Sequence record: OZ335964.1 | DNA: 64,000 nt | Reading direction: 5' to 3' (one strand) | Source: a phage | In this document: piece by piece, positions 10,327 to 59,962 of the stretch | Position numbering within the stretch: position 1 is the first letter of the stretch | Layout of the letters: each line of letters opens with the position of its first letter | Program-made: the position numbers and the translations under genes | The notes under the pieces: model-generated | Databases searched by the model: none | What the model saw: the letters and a program-made list of their open reading frames with translations, nothing else | Told to the model about the DNA's origin: nothing

Positions 10327-11300
10327 TATACGAACTCCAATTCAACCATTAATTGCATTAACAAAAAGACAATGTGAATCTCTTTATCAGCCGCGTGCGC
10401 AAACATCTGATTATTTTCACCGATAATCTCGGTCAGTCGGATAATCGACGCTGGCTTAACTTGAGTATACAACTCATTATAAAGTTTCTTGACAAATTGA
10501 GCGTATGTGTTGGTATATCGCGGTGCTAGTTTACGCACATTAGCAAACTGTTTAGTTTTAAGTGCTTCCACCACATCGGTTACTTCGGTATTGCTACTTT
10601 CGATAACCATGCTCAATACGCCAGCATCAATTTTACCATGTTTAGCGTAGCGGTCCAAAAGTTTCATTACGCGCCGGAAGTCTGGGAAGTTCTGCTTAAC
10701 CAGTTCCGCCAATACGCGCATTTCTTCTACTGGCACACCTTCTTTATCAAGAATTGCTTTACACCGGACGATCATTTCTTTCATCATGCGAAGCTGATCA
10801 TCTTTGGTCGGAGATCCAAACGTGATTGGGTCAAATCGAGATCGCAACGCTGGGATAATACCTTCTAGATCATTTGCTGTAATGATGAATGTCACATTGT
10901 TTGAGTATGCCTCAGAGAAACTACGCAAGTGTCTTTGAGCATCAGCCAGCCCCGCTCGGTCATACTCATCGATAATAACAACTTTGCCTTTTTCTCGTTT
11001 TTCTTCATCGAGTGATACACTCTGCGCAAAGCGTGTAATCTCATCGCGGATAAAATCAATCTTACAATCTGCGCCGTTAACAAACAGATAATCAACACCC
11101 ACATCTTCGCAAAGCGCCTTAGCAACGGTTGTTTTACCAGTACCCGGCGATGGGCTATGCAGAATCATTGAAGGGATTCGGCCTTGCTTAACAATCTGCG
11201 CGAAGATCTTTTTATCTGCTTCCGGCAGAATACATTCAGAAATTGATTTCGGACGGTATTTCTGTTCCCACTGAAACTCATTTTCATTAACACTCAGCAT
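10326..11300 (-). CDS. 44: clamp loader large subunit gp44 (AAA+)
   Basis: Walker A HSPSPGTGKTTVAKALC; near-collinear with recalled T4 gp44; start taken at internal Met (MLSVNENE...), ORF track extends to 11315. Confidence 0.9.
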   Translation of the reverse strand: MLSVNENEFQWEQKYRPKSISECILPEADKKIFAQIVKQGRIPSMILHSPSPGTGKTTVAKALCEDVGVDYLFVNGADCKIDFIRDEITRFAQSVSLDEEKREKGKVVIIDEYDRAGLADAQRHLRSFSEAYSNNVTFIITANDLEGIIPALRSRFDPITFGSPTKDDQLRMMKEMIVRCKAILDKEGVPVEEMRVLAELVKQNFPDFRRVMKLLDRYAKHGKIDAGVLSMVIESSNTEVTDVVEALKTKQFANVRKLAPRYTNTYAQFVKKLYNELYTQVKPASIIRLTEIIGENNQMFAHAADKEIHIVFLLMQLMVELEFV

Positions 11301-41358: not shown

Positions 41359-41651
41359 TAATTAATCTCCAAAAATCCAGCAAGACCTAAACCAACATAA
41401 ACCCAGATGCAAAGGAAAAAGAAGCAAACACCCATAGCAAAGATAAATCCGCGTAGTGTCTTTGGATAACCTACCCAATATTCCCGACCATCTTCTAACC
41501 GGATCAGTTTATTGCCTTGAGAGTCCATGTCAATCACAACATGCTTATTTCGAGATTGCAATAGATATTGTTTTACAATCTCTACACCCGCCATAATAAC
41601 AATAACGAAATTAAAAGTCCACATAACAAGGTTAATGATAGTCTCAAGCAT
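41358..41651 (-). CDS. small membrane protein (97 aa)
   Basis: Hydrophobic helices at both ends. Confidence 0.4.
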   Translation of the reverse strand: MLETIINLVMWTFNFVIVIMAGVEIVKQYLLQSRNKHVVIDMDSQGNKLIRLEDGREYWVGYPKTLRGFIFAMGVCFFFLCIWVYVGLGLAGFLEIN

Positions 41652-41886
41652 TTTCTATCACCTCCACCCAATCAGGCGTTTCCTGAAATACTCCTTCGCC
41701 TTCGTGGTGGATGCATCCTTTATTGCTACAATACATCCACCAATCCCACATTCCCCACGGTAAACGCTGCATATCGTCGTTACAGCAAGTGAAGATGATA
41801 GGCCAACCACATCTAACACATCGGCAGTTTTCTTTCATGTGAGCGGTATTAGGCTTCTTCATAGATGACTCCAATATAATCGACAT
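41644..41886 (-). CDS. Cys/Trp-rich hypothetical protein (80 aa)
   Basis: CRCVRCGW...FTCCND...YCSNKGCIHHEG. Confidence 0.35.
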   Translation of the reverse strand: MSIILESSMKKPNTAHMKENCRCVRCGWPIIFTCCNDDMQRLPWGMWDWWMYCSNKGCIHHEGEGVFQETPDWVEVIENA

Positions 41887-42089
41887 TTACATTTAGGGCA
41901 ATGCGGTTCTTTAATATAATACCCGTCTGTCTTTGGAACACTAACAGGAGCGGTTTTTATATTGTATTCAGTGAAACAACGAAAACAAGTTACGTTTTCT
42001 ACAGACTGACGTTTCACCCAATCACCGGAATAGAGATCATTTTTATTTGTCATATTCAACCACCACAATGTTAATGTCTGGAGTAGCAA
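41859..42089 (-). CDS. zinc-ribbon hypothetical protein (76 aa)
   Basis: CFRCF...CPKCKC motifs. Confidence 0.35.
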   Translation of the reverse strand: MLLQTLTLWWLNMTNKNDLYSGDWVKRQSVENVTCFRCFTEYNIKTAPVSVPKTDGYYIKEPHCPKCKCRLYWSHL

Positions 42090-42513: not shown

Positions 42514-42873
42514 TTAGTCACGGGAAGACAACCCAGCCATAAAACGGCTTAAAAGCGTGTCACGATAAGCAAAGCATAATTGCTTATCAGGGGCAGTATC
42601 ACACAGGTTGCGTTTTGTTTTAGCAAAGCTGGCAATACTCAGATCCCACGCTCGATTTTTTCGTTTTTCATCTCGACCTTGTTTGTATGCCTCGTCAAGT
42701 TCAAGTGCGATAAAATCGCTACACATGTTATCATCATCACAGAAGGTTTTAATGATCTTTTTGTTGATCTCAAATCCTTTGTATTCGACCTTTGGATAAG
42801 GGCGCTCATTACTAGCAAGCGCACCAGCCGAGAACATCATAGCAATCATAGCAATTATTGTCAACTTTTTCAT
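42514..42873 (-). CDS. secreted/periplasmic protein (119 aa)
   Basis: N-terminal signal peptide MKKLTIIAMIAMMFSAGALA. Confidence 0.45.
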   Translation of the reverse strand: MKKLTIIAMIAMMFSAGALASNERPYPKVEYKGFEINKKIIKTFCDDDNMCSDFIALELDEAYKQGRDEKRKNRAWDLSIASFAKTKRNLCDTAPDKQLCFAYRDTLLSRFMAGLSSRD

Positions 42874-42880
42874 ATATTCC

Positions 42881-43471
42881 TCAATAGCGTTTAGTTTTAA
42901 GAATGCCTTTACTCTTTAGATGGTTAGCCTTTTTTAGTACGTCATCAGCATAACCCAATCCGGCTTTATAGTTCCATCCAGCATTGTAAGAAGCTAGCGC
43001 GAGTCGGATATTACCGTTTCGAACATCCAGCCAGTATGCTAACTCATCCATCGCGTAGAATGCAGAAACCTCGCGATTCATGATAAATTTGATAGTCTGG
43101 CGATCACTCATTTTAACACCGCGCTTTGCATTTTTCGCTTTCACCGTTTTAAGGTAATTTTGAAATAATCCATAAGCATGATGATTTTTCTTTGGTGCTA
43201 AGTTTGCACCCGCGCTTGATTCTTGCCATGCTATACCCGCCAGGATGTGGCCTAAACCCTTTCCGTCATAGCGAATATTCGGATGGTCATTTTTCAACTT
43301 ACCGCTTTTCTCGAATTGTTCGCCATATTGATAGGCGAAATGTAAATTATCTAGTTGGTGTGCTGTAAAGTTGTCTATCGGCGCTTTTTTGATCGGTGCG
43401 CTAGTCGATGCGTGTGTAGCACCAACGGCTAGTGACAGACTCAATACTATCGCTTTTAGAACTTTTAACAT
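42881..43471 (-). CDS. secreted lytic transglycosylase (SLT-domain) protein
   Basis: Signal peptide LKAIVLSLSLAVGATHA; SLT motifs ILAGIAWQESS (catalytic Glu-Ser), YGLFQ, ASYNAGW. Confidence 0.55.
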   Translation of the reverse strand: MLKVLKAIVLSLSLAVGATHASTSAPIKKAPIDNFTAHQLDNLHFAYQYGEQFEKSGKLKNDHPNIRYDGKGLGHILAGIAWQESSAGANLAPKKNHHAYGLFQNYLKTVKAKNAKRGVKMSDRQTIKFIMNREVSAFYAMDELAYWLDVRNGNIRLALASYNAGWNYKAGLGYADDVLKKANHLKSKGILKTKRY

Positions 43472-43556: not shown

Positions 43557-43979
43557 TTATTGGTCCACTTTCAAAACAACAGCCGACATTTTACCCGCCA
43601 GTCGTTTTGGATTCTCTATAATCATTCGACAGCATAGACCGTGATATGGCTTGCCGTCTTCAATTAGGTCTACTGTCATCCCGATCCACATGTTACCGTC
43701 AGTAATTTCTAATCGATTAGGTCGGTCTTCCATTTTCAGGAAGTCGAAGATCTCCGGCAAACGAGTTTCTACCTTATTGAATAGTTCCATTGTCTTATGT
43801 TCATCGATATGACGATCGGTTAGACGGTCGATCATATGCGGACTAAAGCGAATGAAAATATACTCACCGTAACCATCATTCAAGCACTTTTCTTTGATCT
43901 GCGCATTGGTTTTGCGCATTTCGGTTTCGAAGAATCTACGCAGCTTACTACGGCGAACGTGTACATTAATTGTTTCCAT
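43557..43979 (-). CDS. regB: endoribonuclease RegB
   Basis: From internal Met: METINVHVRRSKLRRFFETE...RLEITDGNMWIGMTV...CCRMIIENPKRLAGKMSAVVLKV parallels recalled T4 RegB (...RLEITDGNLWLGFTV...CRMAIINSRRLPGKASKAVIKT). Confidence 0.75.
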   Translation of the reverse strand: METINVHVRRSKLRRFFETEMRKTNAQIKEKCLNDGYGEYIFIRFSPHMIDRLTDRHIDEHKTMELFNKVETRLPEIFDFLKMEDRPNRLEITDGNMWIGMTVDLIEDGKPYHGLCCRMIIENPKRLAGKMSAVVLKVDQ

Positions 43980-43980
43980 T

Positions 43981-44319
43981 TTATTCTCCTTTCTTAAACA
44001 AATTGCGAAGCCAGTATACAAACGGGATTTCTTTAAACTTGAACTTGTCAATAGTTAATTCTTTAGTAGCAAGATGAATACCATAAGCATCATGTGTCAC
44101 GATATGCCATTTTCTATAGCCCAAATGTGAACAACCGTCTGAATCTAGGTTAATAAGAGTTTCTCGCTCACTAGGATTATTTTTCCACAATTTTGTAACC
44201 GGGTCGCACATAATTCGACCTAGCGTACCATGAATAATCTCACAACGGTAAAGTTTTCCAGCAGTGAGATAGGCGCACCCGTCATAGTCGGTATAAACAA
44301 ACACTTCTTTAACACTCAT
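43981..44319 (-). CDS. paralog family C protein (start at MSVKEV)
   Basis: ...YTDYDGCAYLTAGKLYRC...DSDGCSHLGYRKWHIV; preceded by promoter cassette and SD. Confidence 0.45.
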   Translation of the reverse strand: MSVKEVFVYTDYDGCAYLTAGKLYRCEIIHGTLGRIMCDPVTKLWKNNPSERETLINLDSDGCSHLGYRKWHIVTHDAYGIHLATKELTIDKFKFKEIPFVYWLRNLFKKGE

Positions 44320-44380
44320 TTTAATACTCCTTTGTTGTTTCGATGGGGGTATATTACTACCCCCGATCATGTGTGTCAAC
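44320..44380 (-). promoter_or_regulatory. early promoter-hairpin-leader cassette (PeSL-like)
   Basis: TTGACA - 9 nt - GGGGGUAguaauauaCCCCC hairpin - leader CAUCGAAACAACA - AAGGAGTATTAAA-ATG. Confidence 0.6.
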
Positions 44381-44640
44381 TACTTTTTCAAGAATTTTTT
44401 AATTGCGTTCCAAAGACCTTTATTCTCAGGTTGTTTTGGTTCTTCGATCAGCGTCCATGTTCGACCGTCTAAGTGTGCACAATTTTTAAGGCAAATAAAA
44501 ATCTGGTGTCCCTTATCATCACGGATATAACCACTATTCGCAAATCTTTCATGTGGTGTATATTCATACAGTGTATTTGGTGTAATATACTTGCGGTTAC
44601 TATAAGGTGTCATCACATACATCATGGTACTAACTCCCAA
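44380..44640 (-). CDS. paralog family C protein (86 aa)
   Basis: ...NTLYEYTPHERFANSGYIRDDKGHQIFICLKNCAHLDGRTWTLI. Confidence 0.45.
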   Translation of the reverse strand: MGVSTMMYVMTPYSNRKYITPNTLYEYTPHERFANSGYIRDDKGHQIFICLKNCAHLDGRTWTLIEEPKQPENKGLWNAIKKFLKK

Positions 44641-44816
44641 CGATCACCGCGAAGATGAGAACATCCACCATCAAGAAGGATCGTAATACGAAACCCCGCA
44701 TCATCTTCAATATACCCGATAGTCGGTGGATGTTCGTCGTCTCGTGCCGGGGTAAAATCATACATCTTTCCGGGCGTAATATCTTGTCCTTTATTGCTAT
44801 TGGTATAAACTTGCAT
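44622..44816 (-). CDS. paralog family C protein (64 aa)
   Basis: ...GKMYDFTPARDDEHPPTIGYIEDDAGFRITILLDGGCSHLRGDRWELV. Confidence 0.45.
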   Translation of the reverse strand: MQVYTNSNKGQDITPGKMYDFTPARDDEHPPTIGYIEDDAGFRITILLDGGCSHLRGDRWELVP

Positions 44817-44837
44817 TTTCTTAATCTCCTATATTAA

Positions 44838-45536
44838 CTAACCACGGGTATAGTGTTCCAGAACAACGGTCAGATGAATATATTCTAATAAATCTTTCCA
44901 AAAGTCAACATCTGGTTCTTCCGGCATACCGTTTTTCTTTGCCTCTTCACGCGCGAGTTTAACACGCTCGTAGAGATCTTTCAATTCTTCCCGCACATTA
45001 TCAAAGGTTCTTTCTCCTAACTTACACGCTAAAATAGAAGAACGTCGCGCGAGTGGGAATTGTAGATCACCTGTCTGATAGATTTCAAGTAGCTGATAAC
45101 CAACACGCAGAGCATGAGAAAGATCTTTCCAGTTACTGAAATACTTTTCAGATTTTGCTACCTGCTTTTTGAGATAACCAGACAAACCCCACATCCCAAC
45201 ATGATAGAATTTATCGCGATGTGTTCGGATGTATTCCCATTCTCTGGAGGATTCAATCAACATGTTACTAGGCGCGTGCACCATGTCAATAGCGCCAATA
45301 TCACCTTTACATGCCAGATTGATAAACCGTTTTAGACTGAACATATTAACGTCAATATCGTCTTTGGTGTTCTTGATACCTTGACCGCTAGTGCTTTGGT
45401 CATAGTGTTCTTTCATCGTTCCTAAGATAATTTCTTTCGCAGTCGGAACAAAGATACCACGATAATCTTTATCGGAATTTTCAGTATCAAGACCGTATAA
45501 GTGAGATCCGAAGACCATTTTAACCATTGTATGCAT
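44838..45536 (-). CDS. nucleotidyltransferase-fold protein (Pol-beta superfamily, minimal NTase motif)
   Basis: N-terminal FGSHLYGLDTENSDKDYRGIFV fits GS-x3-G-x5-SD-x-D; 232 aa. Confidence 0.5.
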   Translation of the reverse strand: MHTMVKMVFGSHLYGLDTENSDKDYRGIFVPTAKEIILGTMKEHYDQSTSGQGIKNTKDDIDVNMFSLKRFINLACKGDIGAIDMVHAPSNMLIESSREWEYIRTHRDKFYHVGMWGLSGYLKKQVAKSEKYFSNWKDLSHALRVGYQLLEIYQTGDLQFPLARRSSILACKLGERTFDNVREELKDLYERVKLAREEAKKNGMPEEPDVDFWKDLLEYIHLTVVLEHYTRG

Positions 45537-45578
45537 AATTAAACCCTCAGTTGATTAAGAGATTGCATCATATCATCA

Positions 45579-45612
45579 TAAAACGAAAAAGCCAACCCTT
45601 TTCGGATTGGCT
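45579..45612 (-). terminator. rho-independent terminator
   Basis: AGCCAAUCC-GAAAA-GGGUUGGCU followed by UUUUUCGUUUU on minus strand. Confidence 0.65.
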
Positions 45613-45622
45613 TGATGAAAAA

Positions 45623-46039
45623 TTAGAGAGATTCGGTAAAGGTGCGCGAAATAACATCACGTTGTTGGTCTGGAGTCAGACTATTGAATCTTACGGCATA
45701 TCCGCTAACGCGAATGGTTAGTTGCGGATACTTATCAGGATTAGCAACCGCATCAAGAAGAAGATCGCGACTCATCACATTGATATTCGCGTGCTGACCT
45801 CCTTCGACAACCGGAGCACCAGTATCTACAATAACAGGACGGAAGCTAGTTGTGTGCAGTGCCAGCGAATCGACGTCTTCTGCGGTGATCACATGGTCTT
45901 CTGCGAAAGTTTTACTAACAATTACTTTAGCGCCGATCAGTGCTTTCGGTTCGGATACCAGAATCATAGGCGCGAAATGTCCACCAATAATAGTACCTTT
46001 ATGCTCACCTTTCATGATTTGAATTGCTTTAAATTCCAT
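45623..46039 (-). CDS. autonomous glycyl radical cofactor (GrcA/YfiD-like)
   Basis: C-terminal [11 protein letters not shown]...[35 protein letters not shown] nearly identical to E. coli GrcA C-terminus (glycyl radical motif RVSGY); a T4 homologue (Y06I) is described in the literature. Confidence 0.88.
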
Positions 46040-46722: not shown

Positions 46723-47112
46723 TTATTTTGGATCTGGGTATTTGCTGTGTGGCAATTGTAGATGAGGACCATCTTTAAACGATACCCAATCCCCACCCCA
46801 TTCAACAGGAACACCCAATTCTCGACCAGCTTGTTTAAATGCATCAGCGATCATGCGGTAATATTTCATGTTCCATGTATCCTTATCTTTCGGATACGCT
46901 ACAACGTCAACCGCGAAACCGTGAAGATGACGAGATTTCATAGTCTTAGATTTACCTTCCGCAACATATTTCTTTTGCGTTTCTAGACTACGCACACCTT
47001 CCGTAATACCAAAATCGACCGGAGTCAGTTCTAATGCACGATGAACGACTTTTACCAGGTCTGGATGTACACCAACAAGCCGATCTTTGCTTCTTTGAGA
47101 TAATTTAAACAT
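46723..47112 (-). CDS. peptidase M15-family cell-wall hydrolase (candidate endolysin)
   Basis: 129 aa; SRHLHGFAVDV (His...Asp zinc ligands) and DGPHLQL (third His) as in L-Ala-D-Glu/D-Ala-D-Ala peptidases; occupies the position of lysozyme e in T4 gene order. Confidence 0.6.
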   Translation of the reverse strand: MFKLSQRSKDRLVGVHPDLVKVVHRALELTPVDFGITEGVRSLETQKKYVAEGKSKTMKSRHLHGFAVDVVAYPKDKDTWNMKYYRMIADAFKQAGRELGVPVEWGGDWVSFKDGPHLQLPHSKYPDPK

Positions 47113-47140
47113 TATTCACCCCCTTTGTGAGTGATAATAT

Positions 47141-47332
47141 TTAGATTCCAGTGATCCTGCATAGAGTTCTTGTATTAGCACCAATCAGGATCGCATTAAC
47201 GACAACCATTCCCCAATCAACCCACTGATTATTATAAATGCTAAACCCGTTTGCAAGACCAAATACAAGCATTCCGGTACACATACTCAGAGCAATAATC
47301 AACATCACGGTAAAACCAAATGCAAATCTCAT
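47141..47332 (-). CDS. small membrane protein (63 aa)
   Basis: Two TM helices. Confidence 0.4.
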   Translation of the reverse strand: MRFAFGFTVMLIIALSMCTGMLVFGLANGFSIYNNQWVDWGMVVVNAILIGANTRTLCRITGI

Positions 47333-47333
47333 A

Positions 47334-47600
47334 TTATTTTCCTTTTCTCTGTTTACGTTTATAAAAGTAATACATTACCTCATCGCGTCCGGTGATCCAA
47401 CATGCTAGGGCGGTAAACAGGTTTACAATTCCCAACACACCTACGGATGCGGCGCTGTCAACAGACATAGGAACAGTAAAGGCCATAGCTAACATAGCAA
47501 CGCCACAAATGACATTAAGCACCATTATAATAAGACCGAAGAAAACCATTGTCAATCCTCCCAAATAAGAAAACCAACAATCACGCCAGTGATAAGACAT
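47334..47600 (-). CDS. small membrane protein (88 aa)
   Basis: Multiple TM helices; basic C-terminus KRKQRKGK. Confidence 0.4.
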   Translation of the reverse strand: MSYHWRDCWFSYLGGLTMVFFGLIIMVLNVICGVAMLAMAFTVPMSVDSAASVGVLGIVNLFTALACWITGRDEVMYYFYKRKQRKGK

Positions 47601-47743
47601 GATGCGCCGCTAATCAGACAACCCGCGCCAAGTGATTCCCACCAGATCAGAGAAGCGACAATAACGCAAATTCCCCAGACTACCGCAATCACAACATAGG
47701 CAATGGTCGCCAAAAACATATATTTGTTCATAATAAATCCCAT
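47552..47743 (-). CDS. small membrane protein (63 aa)
   Basis: Two TM helices. Confidence 0.4.
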   Translation of the reverse strand: MGFIMNKYMFLATIAYVVIAVVWGICVIVASLIWWESLGAGCLISGASCLITGVIVGFLIWED

Positions 47744-58151: not shown

Positions 58152-58162
58152 GGTGATTAATT

Positions 58163-59962
58163 ATGCTAATGTTTAATAACTCCGTTAAATGGTTTACCGG
58201 AATTGTAGAAAACAGGGAAGACCCATTAATGCTGGGGCGCGTTCAGGTTAGGATTCATGGTATACATCCTTCGCTATCCGCACACGGTGACATTCAAGGT
58301 CTTCCAACCGAAGATCTATTATGGATTACGCCAGTACAAGATATTACAAGTGCGGCGATCTCCGGTATAGGTCAAAGCCCTACTGGTATTGTTGAAGGTT
58401 CAATGGTATTTGGTTTGGCTTTAGATGAACGTTATTTAAACTGCGTTATTCTTGGTACTATTGCCGGACAATATACAGAGAAACCACTCACGACAGAAGG
58501 TTTTTGTGACCCTTCTGGTGCATATCCTCGTTATATTGGTAATGATGTTAATATTCTTGCTCGTGGCGGTATTAACCCAGAAACCGGACAAACAACAAAA
58601 CCTGATAGTGTCTATATTCGAGATGAAAACACTGGAGTTGCCGTAAATCCAGACGACGAGCCATTAGACCAAATTCCGGTTGATGATAATCCTGATTTTA
58701 CAATAGAAAAAATGCTGCGGGGCGATGAGGGATATCGCGAGAAATGGTATCTTGATTCAGAAGGATATCCGACAATAGGCATCGGGCATTTGATCATTTA
58801 TAAGAAAACCAGTGATCTTGGTATTATCAATAATGAACTTTCTAAGCTGGTAGGGCGTGAAGTTACAAACGGAAGACTTACAGCCGAAGAAGTTAGTAAA
58901 GTATTTGCTGACGATATAGAAAAGACTCGTCGTGATATGCGCAAACATCCACGAATTGCACCTGTCTATAATAAATGTAATGCCTCACGTCGTATGGCAT
59001 TAGAAAATATGGCGTTTCAAATGGGTGTTGGTGGATTGGGTAAATTTAAGAATAGTCTTGCTGCGATGTTAGCGGAAGAATGGAAACAAGCCTATGATGG
59101 ATTACGTCAATCTGTATGGGCTAATCAAACTCCAGGACGCTCCAGCCGTGTTTCTAAAATTATTTTAACTGGTAACTTAGAATCATATGGCGTAATTGCT
59201 CCAAAGAAAGAGGAATCAATTTCGGATGATCCGCGAGCACGTTTAAGAAATGCCCGTATTGCTGCCTATAAGACACAGAGAGCAGAAGAAGACCCAGAAG
59301 CACCGTTTACCCCACAAGACACACGAATCATGTTTAAAGAGCCTAAGAGTTCGTATTCTGCAAGGTATCCTTATAACCATGTGTACGAGTCAGAGAGCGG
59401 TCATATTATCGAGATTGATGATACTCCTTCTCATGAGCGATATCATCGTAAACATCCTTCTGGTACATTTGAAGAAACCAGACCGGACGGAACGAGGGTA
59501 GAAAAGATTGAAGGTGATGATTATCTAATCGTTAAACAAGGCCGTAAAGTAAACGTTAAGGGTAATTTGCAAGTTGTTGTTGAAGGTGACGCGCAAGTTT
59601 ATTATATGGGTAATGTGATGCAAACCGTTGATGGTAACGTCACTGAATTTATTCGTGGCAATGTTAATCAGACCGTTGAAGGTACTGCTAACATGCATGT
59701 TGTCGGTGATGTTATCGCACAGCTTGACGCTAATTTGACGGCTAATGTCAAGGGTAATGCTGAATTAATGATCGAGGGTAACACTACAGAGACAATTAAA
59801 GGTAACTATGATTTAACCGTTGAGGGTAATTTTAATATGACCGTCAATGGCACTAAATCAGATCAGGTTAATGGTGACTGGTCCCGTAATTGTGGTGCAA
59901 GCGTTAAAGATATTGCATCTGGTACAGTTAAAATTGATGGTAGCCGTATTGATCTTGGGTGA
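58163..59962 (+). CDS. 5: baseplate hub/cell-puncturing protein gp5 with lysozyme domain
   Basis: N-terminal OB region, lysozyme domain YLDSEGYPTIGIGHLI and ENMAFQMGVGG (T4: WDTEGYPTIGIGHLI; ENMAFQMGVGG), C-terminal beta-helix repeats VxGNxxxx, ending DGSRIDLG (T4: DGSRIDIG). Confidence 0.95.
   Translation: MLMFNNSVKWFTGIVENREDPLMLGRVQVRIHGIHPSLSAHGDIQGLPTEDLLWITPVQDITSAAISGIGQSPTGIVEGSMVFGLALDERYLNCVILGTIAGQYTEKPLTTEGFCDPSGAYPRYIGNDVNILARGGINPETGQTTKPDSVYIRDENTGVAVNPDDEPLDQIPVDDNPDFTIEKMLRGDEGYREKWYLDSEGYPTIGIGHLIIYKKTSDLGIINNELSKLVGREVTNGRLTAEEVSKVFADDIEKTRRDMRKHPRIAPVYNKCNASRRMALENMAFQMGVGGLGKFKNSLAAMLAEEWKQAYDGLRQSVWANQTPGRSSRVSKIILTGNLESYGVIAPKKEESISDDPRARLRNARIAAYKTQRAEEDPEAPFTPQDTRIMFKEPKSSYSARYPYNHVYESESGHIIEIDDTPSHERYHRKHPSGTFEETRPDGTRVEKIEGDDYLIVKQGRKVNVKGNLQVVVEGDAQVYYMGNVMQTVDGNVTEFIRGNVNQTVEGTANMHVVGDVIAQLDANLTANVKGNAELMIEGNTTETIKGNYDLTVEGNFNMTVNGTKSDQVNGDWSRNCGASVKDIASGTVKIDGSRIDLG

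Follow-up and report, generated by a model that had tools for sequence, protein, structure and literature searches.

Gp54 of phage Bas11 is a 66-amino-acid (aa) non-essential protein that directly activates the defence protein CapRel-SJ46 (PMC11578894). Its Pfam family, PF25180, is named 'Phage antiviral trigger protein Gp54', and its barrel is six-stranded. A second point of reference is phage T4, where the interval from regB to vs.6 holds vs.3, vs.4 and vs.5, small non-essential early genes without assigned function. Here, we describe three small genes, designated A, B and C, that lie in this same slot in a Krischvirus (an RB49-like, T4-type phage), in a stretch of 64,000 nucleotides (nt) of sequence record OZ335964.1 that was analyzed as a whole (referred to as the window). 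All three are encoded on the minus strand: gene A (positions 44622–44816; RB49p097) encodes a 64-aa protein with an isoelectric point (pI) of 4.6 that consists of a single domain; gene B (44380–44625; RB49p096) encodes an 81-aa protein in which this domain is followed by a basic C-terminal tail; and gene C (43981–44319; RB49p095) encodes a 112-aa protein in which the domain carries an insertion in the β2–β3 loop and a C-terminal extension of about 37 aa. The genes have been known as hypothetical since the RB49 genome, whose annotation labels all three 'hypothetical protein', and they are present in PHROGs without assigned function, which makes theirs a DUF (domain of unknown function)-grade family. 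What we add is a broader domain family with its signature, a predicted fold, a pattern of selection and recombination, and the rejection of readings of the locus that involve zinc or denV.

A, B and C are true tandem paralogs, as the first-pass annotation of this DNA had proposed, and the shared motif on which that proposal was built is real and in register in the three proteins. In BLASTP comparisons, A is 40% identical to B (expectation value E 2e-12) and 31% identical to C (E 4e-5), the B–C match reaching E 0.009 only. The motif reads CSHLRGDRW in A (44637–44663, minus), where it is predicted to form a 3-10 helix leading into strand β5, CAHLDGRTW in B (44455–44481, minus) and CSHLGYRKW in C (44107–44133, minus), the B version being CAYLDDRPW in phages JK32, Brandy and SSG23. 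A and C match the whole of phrog_6261 (5.4e-29 and 2.7e-36, respectively), and the match of B to phrog_15978 (2.8e-60) is likewise full-length and takes in the tail. Because A also matches phrog_15978 (2.5e-7) and B phrog_6261 (6.5e-6), the two PHROGs constitute one domain family that has been divided in two; both are without assigned function and together cover only part of the family delineated below. A fourth copy was sought among the 999 open reading frames (ORFs) of the window with a hidden Markov model (HMM) of the three copies, and none was found, the next best ORF scoring E 0.028.

One might instead regard the three ORFs as non-functional remnants, whether pieces of a single decayed gene or ORFs arising by chance, given their very small size, their purely hypothetical status in annotations and, in the case of B, the competing start codons. 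We give this view practically no credit, since it is already refuted by the following data: each gene aligns with the whole family profile of about 60 aa, has its own start codon and its own GGAG Shine–Dalgarno sequence (44826–44829 for A, 44631–44634 for B and 44329–44332 for C, all minus), and is under purifying selection, and coupled overlaps are present. Furthermore, homologues are found in unrelated phages, and the region is kept in 59 of 59 Krischvirus records (RB49, Phi1, JSE and GEC-3S among them), which cover at least 80% of a 2.1-kb query spanning the three genes, at 90–99% identity. The ORF coordinates first assigned to A and C stand. For B, 44380–44640 corresponds to the longest ORF, which begins at a TTG codon, and the likely start is rather the ATG at 44625, which overlaps the stop codon of A as ATGA and is also the annotated start in GEC-3S and Makalu_001.

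Pooled Nei–Gojobori estimates on seven or eight Krischvirus genomes gave ratios of non-synonymous to synonymous substitution rates (dN/dS) of 0.24 for A, 0.23 for B and 0.14 for C, with many synonymous changes behind each value, versus 0.04 for regB and 0.03 for nrdC.11. The three genes are thus under purifying selection, yet evolve several times faster than their neighbors. B exists as two alleles, the window/RB49 type and the JK32/Brandy type, with SSG23 sharing the divergent core of the latter: DNA identity between the alleles falls to 60–82% over this core (about 44460–44640), whereas it is 93–100% in the flanks, and the second allele has CAYL where the window has CAHL. In addition, a metagenomic relative (contig L006) carries an in-frame A/B hybrid joined exactly at the shared GYIxDD codons and therefore two copies instead of three. 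In most of the Krischvirus records listed, three places were found by tblastn with a consensus sequence.

The domain is far from being restricted to Krischvirus. An exhaustive HMMER profile search of 1.84 billion cluster representatives retrieved 352 proteins at E ≤ 1e-3, most of them stand-alone proteins of 58–75 aa. The domain signature is [IL]T-x-G-K-x-Y ... I-x-D-D-x-G ... C-[AS]-H-L-x-G-x-x-W. Column conservation, like the Cys and His counts given further on, was calculated over 159 family domains: the Tyr of GKxY and the Trp are invariant (100%), and conservation is 96% for the Thr, 94% for the Lys, 92% for the Asp of DDxG, 92% for the His (otherwise mostly Tyr, Phe or Trp), 89% for the Cys (otherwise mostly Ser) and 89% for the Gly. 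Cultured phages that encode members include, besides Krischvirus, Vibrio myophages, Drexlerviridae (Bas09 gp82 and Bas11 gp78), Pseudomonas KIL phages, Proteus phages and Maribacter phages. The family is mostly acidic, with a median pI of 4.85 and a median net charge of −4, and a pI above 7.5 in 13% of members. Multiplicity recurs outside Krischvirus, in the form of two or three domains fused within one chain (P0022, P0027 and P0032) or of several separate, often adjacent copies per genome (three in L013/L014; gp19 and gp18 in W011D). Bas11 (L030, MZ501085) carries gp78, a true member (E 3e-12; 47025–47219), and after it gp79, a second copy with a weaker match (E 3e-5; 47216–47653), and an adjacent pair is likewise present in Bas09 and W011D.

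Some members have C-terminal extensions, one of which gave a match to the Thoeris anti-defence protein Tad2 (E 8e-4, 20 bits versus a Pfam cut-off of 25); apart from this sub-threshold match, the fusion partners of the domain have no assignable function. Scans of A, B, C and 124 relatives against Pfam, NCBIfam and PADLOC assigned them to no family, the matches to FosA, MGP3_C, cyclophilin, DUF6501 and Tudor_5 being dismissed as noise-level. Three large proteins retrieved by the exhaustive search (P0025, P0026 and P0074) were discarded as FN3-repeat proteins matching only the LTPGKxY stretch. Of two degenerate DNA patterns run on IMG/VR, the first returned 0 loci and the second 13, only 2 of which are real members, and word-indexed protein searches yielded few extra members and no names.

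The domain is predicted to be a five-stranded SH3-like β-barrel in which C-x-H-L forms a short 3-10 helix ahead of the last strand. The AlphaFold2 model of A (predicted local distance difference test, pLDDT, 89; predicted template modeling score, pTM, 0.72) is SH3-like and displays, in order, β1, a long loop with ITPGK, β2, β3, the DDxG hairpin, β4, a 3-10 helix (S-H-L) and β5, which follows the invariant Trp; the model of C has a pLDDT of 74, with a low-confidence tail. At the level of the fold, the modeled domain thus has what is expected of an SH3-like protein, i.e. a five-stranded barrel with a 3-10 helix between β4 and β5 that can be superposed on SH3 domains. The likeness goes no further: structural alignments with SH3 and SH3-like barrels have identities of 2–20% and Z scores below 5, the ligand-binding residues of canonical SH3 domains (ALYDY, WW and PxxY) are missing, and the Pfam SH3 models match neither A, B and C at E ≤ 1 nor the 124 family members at E ≤ 0.01. 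Foldseek searches of BFVD returned uncharacterized phage proteins only, and profile searches of PDB sequences gave chance-level matches only (Cren7, E 1.4; RNA polymerase subunit N, E 0.05).

Bas11 Gp54 (PDB 9AXB) came out as the best or third-best structural match of solved structure, and it locally resembles the family in sequence (LTPG ... GIEITIDLEEMVCYHSGLTWKV). We nevertheless rejected homology: the family HMM scores Gp54 at about 3 bits, hhalign gives a probability of 3% over 24 columns, the PDB profile searches missed it, and A, B and C have no PF25180 match. Since profile comparisons are weak, since PF25180 is not matched and since Bas11 has its own true member, gp78, the relation of the A/B/C family to Gp54 is a fold-level one only. 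On the strength of the models, the family would add another case to the small SH3-like accessory proteins already described in phages.

An SH3-like fold is also common to Cren7, Spt5-KOW and integrase C-terminal domains, which brings up a rival reading, namely that A, B and C are small nucleic-acid-binding barrels of the Cren7, Sso7d or KOW kind acting on early mRNA or DNA, C being perhaps a cofactor or regulator of the RegB endoribonuclease in a layout reminiscent of antitoxin–toxin pairs. We consider it doubtful. It does draw support from the tails, which make B (pI 9.3) and C (pI 8.3) basic overall, from the presence directly upstream of nrdC.11, an RNA-repair-type nucleotidyltransferase, and, as far as RegB is concerned, from the position of the C stop codon, 1 nt from the regB ATG, and from the single early promoter that serves both genes. 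However, most members have an acidic or neutral domain, which, together with the chance-level Cren7 match, also led us to reject its assignment to Cren7/Sso7d-type chromatin proteins. A partnership with RegB, for its part, sits poorly with the fact that the family is common in phages whose examined stretches showed no RegB homologue, such as Drexlerviridae and Vibrio phages, and that the genes upstream of T4 regB are unrelated.

The conserved Cys–His pair of the motif had been taken in the first-pass annotation as a sign of metal binding, and an intramolecular metal site conserved across the family is not supported by the sequences. The two residues are lost independently and never together: the pair is C/H in 130 domains and S/H in 15; N or D accompanies H in 2, and the other 12 keep C but have Y, F, W, R or S in place of H. 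Ligands are moreover often too few, 78 of the 159 domains having fewer than four Cys and His altogether, 45 a single Cys and 3 no Cys at all; A itself has only one Cys. To these two arguments are added the CAYL version of the motif in the natural second allele of B and the lack of any match to the Phage_zn_bind families. This last point is worth developing, as two genuine zinc-binding small proteins of the same gene cluster are encoded about 2 kb from A, B and C, in the position of T4 tk.1–tk.3, by genes 41644–41862 (minus; Pfam Phage_zn_bind, PF23895, 6e-34) and 41859–42053 (minus; Phage_zn_bind_2, PF23903, 1e-23). Like A, B and C, these are small early proteins of T4-type phages, but they have four Cys arranged in CxxC pairs, whereas A, B and C have no conserved ligand set; nor do A, B and C display the four conserved Cys/His ligands per domain that characterize zinc ribbons.

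The metal hypothesis can be recast by supposing that the Cys and His of C-x-H-L bind zinc or copper across a dimer interface, as one monomer does not provide four ligands. This we regard as unlikely, even though the two residues, only two positions apart, are so well conserved, C has four Cys and several His, and a semi-conserved second Cys (G-C-x-Y) is found in about a third of the members (34%). This second Cys is not associated with the first, which is present in 81% of the domains that have it and in 93% of those that do not. The S/H domains and the 10 domains that combine Cys with Tyr, Phe or Trp also argue against this version, as do the ligand counts, the CAYL allele, and the failure of A, B and C to match Phage_zn_bind or zinc-ribbon models when the two neighboring genes do so at 1e-23 to 6e-34.

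We propose, with about even confidence, that A, B and C are non-enzymatic, multivalent binding modules working at the phage–host interface. This reading takes into account that the genes are small and early, with early-type promoters, that they have no catalytic match and an SH3-like predicted fold, that the family is mostly acidic, that the three genes combine faster evolution with allelic replacement, and that the domain is present in multiple copies, in tandem or fused. The three are functional early genes that arose through tandem duplication of a single phage domain of about 60 residues. According to this proposal, the domain, most likely devoid of a catalytic or zinc-binding role, would act as a small binding module, in which T, K, Y, D, H and W, the polar and aromatic positions under conservation, would provide a contact surface for a partner macromolecule. 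Its role could lie in host take-over or counter-defence, or else in triggering a defence system. The existence of three copies would afford multivalency or differing targets, and the fusion of several such domains into one chain in some relatives suggests, by Rosetta-stone logic, joint action of the Krischvirus trio. A is the bare acidic domain, while B and C each add a basic amphipathic C-terminal helix, LWNAIKKFLKK in B (44383–44415, minus; hydrophobic moment 0.76) and FVYWLRNLFKK in C (43990–44022, minus; 0.65). These segments are those of maximum hydrophobic moment in their respective proteins, the membrane-targeting helix of FtsA scoring 0.78 in the same calculation, and they could tether the two proteins to the membrane or a partner.

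Several observations weigh against this proposal. The signature could be largely structural, with DDxG making a hairpin turn and the Tyr, Trp, Ile and Leu residues belonging to the core. The neighborhoods of family members in six unrelated phages or contigs consist of hypothetical small genes, with no recurrent partner, and we found no experiment, publication or annotated homologue that links the family to a function; a literature search by PHROG identifiers, gene names, peptides and genus returned nothing on these genes. Finally, the interchange of Cys and Ser with the His kept would also fit a nucleophile–base pair. This last remark is the starting point for picturing the domain as a minimal enzyme, probably oligomeric, with the Cys or Ser as nucleophile and the His as base: Cys is indeed replaced almost only by Ser when His is retained (15 cases), and the Thr, Lys and Asp are conserved above 90%. 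We hold such an enzyme to be highly improbable, considering that a 60-residue SH3-like barrel offers no precedent for a catalytic pocket, that the two residues are two positions apart on a single 3-10 helix, that the His is replaced by Tyr, Phe or Trp in 10 domains, the natural B allele included, and that our searches brought up no similarity to catalytic families.

If A, B and C are binding modules as proposed, the domain joins the widely distributed building blocks of phage accessory genes, with no Pfam family, a sharp signature and a tendency to be present in multiple copies. B, which evolves fast and recombines amid conserved neighbors, would then be a handy entry point to the host target or to the defence system that senses it, the more so as RB49, Phi1 and the BASEL phages Bas09 and Bas11 are easily handled on Escherichia coli. 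The pieces can be assembled into a more specific scenario, which we put forward as rather speculative: a widespread, multi-copy class of SH3-like effectors engaged in the arms race between defence and counter-defence, whose members would be inhibitors or decoys of host immunity or of a house-keeping protein and would perhaps be sensed in the way Bas11 Gp54 is, the Krischvirus trio forming a co-translated hetero-oligomer with B and C tail-anchored to the membrane or a partner, and C being maybe a dedicated RegB partner as well. For the time being, the main effect of this work is on annotation: the three genes are real paralogs, their products are probably not zinc proteins, their slot is not that of denV, and the name endoribonuclease does not fit C.

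The description of A, B and C as lying downstream of regB (43557–43979, minus; Pfam REGB_T4, E 2e-48) is correct in plus-strand coordinates only; every gene of the 2.1-kb stretch is encoded on the minus strand, and with respect to transcription the three genes are upstream of regB. The further statement that denV occupies this position in T4 proved mistaken. The T4 slot is that of vs.3–vs.5, and denV lies further on, past vs.8. There is, as had been stated, no DenV-like sequence here, a phmmer search of all window ORFs with T4 DenV giving at best E 0.12, for an unrelated ORF. T4 Vs.3, Vs.4 and Vs.5 share the genomic slot of A, B and C, but they lack the family signature and are unrelated in sequence: none had a significant phmmer match among the window ORFs, the sole match at E ≤ 1 being that of Vs.3 to an unrelated ORF (10530–10865; E 0.8).

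In the order of transcription, the stretch begins with a vs.6/GrcA-like gene (45623–46039, minus), separated from nrdC.11 by a terminator-like hairpin (45589–45613) and a promoter-like site (45567–45595). The latter precedes nrdC.11 (44838–45536, minus), which encodes a nucleotidyltransferase of the RlaP family (Pfam RlaP, E 3e-14; phrog_388) and opens a unit that runs from this promoter to B, with 21 nt between the nrdC.11 stop codon and gene A. A second promoter, of the sigma-70/early type (TTGACA-17-TAATAT; 44351–44379, minus), lies directly 3' of the B stop codon and drives C and regB; a promoter is annotated at the same site in GEC-3S. The regB Shine–Dalgarno sequence (GGAG, 43986–43989, minus) is located inside the last codons of C. 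A and B are translationally coupled, as are C and regB, which makes it likely that the proteins are co-produced early in infection. Downstream of regB come vs.1 (42881–43471, minus) and vs (42514–42873, minus).

Two features of this RNA may bear on expression. The C–regB promoter and a stable hairpin (44341–44369, minus; stem GGGGGTA/TACCCCC, −16.8 kcal/mol, z −2.95) overlap at the −10 element of the former, and the hairpin might affect promoter occlusion or the stability of the mRNA 5' end; an Rfam scan of the region gave no match. Also, RegB cleaves at sites with a GGAG core, a specificity taken from a note in the RB49 annotation, so that the messages of A, B, C and regB may be among its targets, which is said to be the case for T4 regB mRNA; otherwise, these GGAG tetranucleotides may simply be ordinary Shine–Dalgarno cores.

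Some annotations of the region call for comment. Gene C is labeled 'endoribonuclease' or 'putative endoribonuclease' in MK962753 (JK32), MW748999, MT478991 and MK327932, although its product has no similarity to RegB; the label looks like a spill-over from the adjoining regB. Several records wrongly label nrdC.11 as a glutaredoxin or thioredoxin; here this gene sits between vs.6 and the three paralogs, while both its name and a note in the RB49 annotation ('similar to T4 tk.-11') indicate another region of T4. The vs.6-like gene encodes a homologue of autonomous glycyl-radical cofactors (Pfam Gly_radical, 4e-15; T4 Vs.6, E 2e-35) that is 138 aa long, versus 120 aa in T4. In the Vs.1 homologue (E 7e-51 to T4 Vs.1), the protein begins with a signal-like segment, and Pfam gives a weak match (8e-6) to SLT lytic transglycosylases. 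Elsewhere in the window, an ORF of about 600 aa on the plus strand (58157–59959) contains a T4-lysozyme-like domain (E 2.5e-35 to T4 e) and is presumably a gp5-type baseplate lysozyme rather than an endolysin.

Finally, the DNA upstream of the block differs among relatives. JK32 (L011, 1–364) has an HNH endonuclease gene in place of vs.6, and the L006 contig (1–44) departs from the window just upstream of its A/B hybrid gene. This variability is suggestive of mobile-element activity or recombination at the edge of the region.

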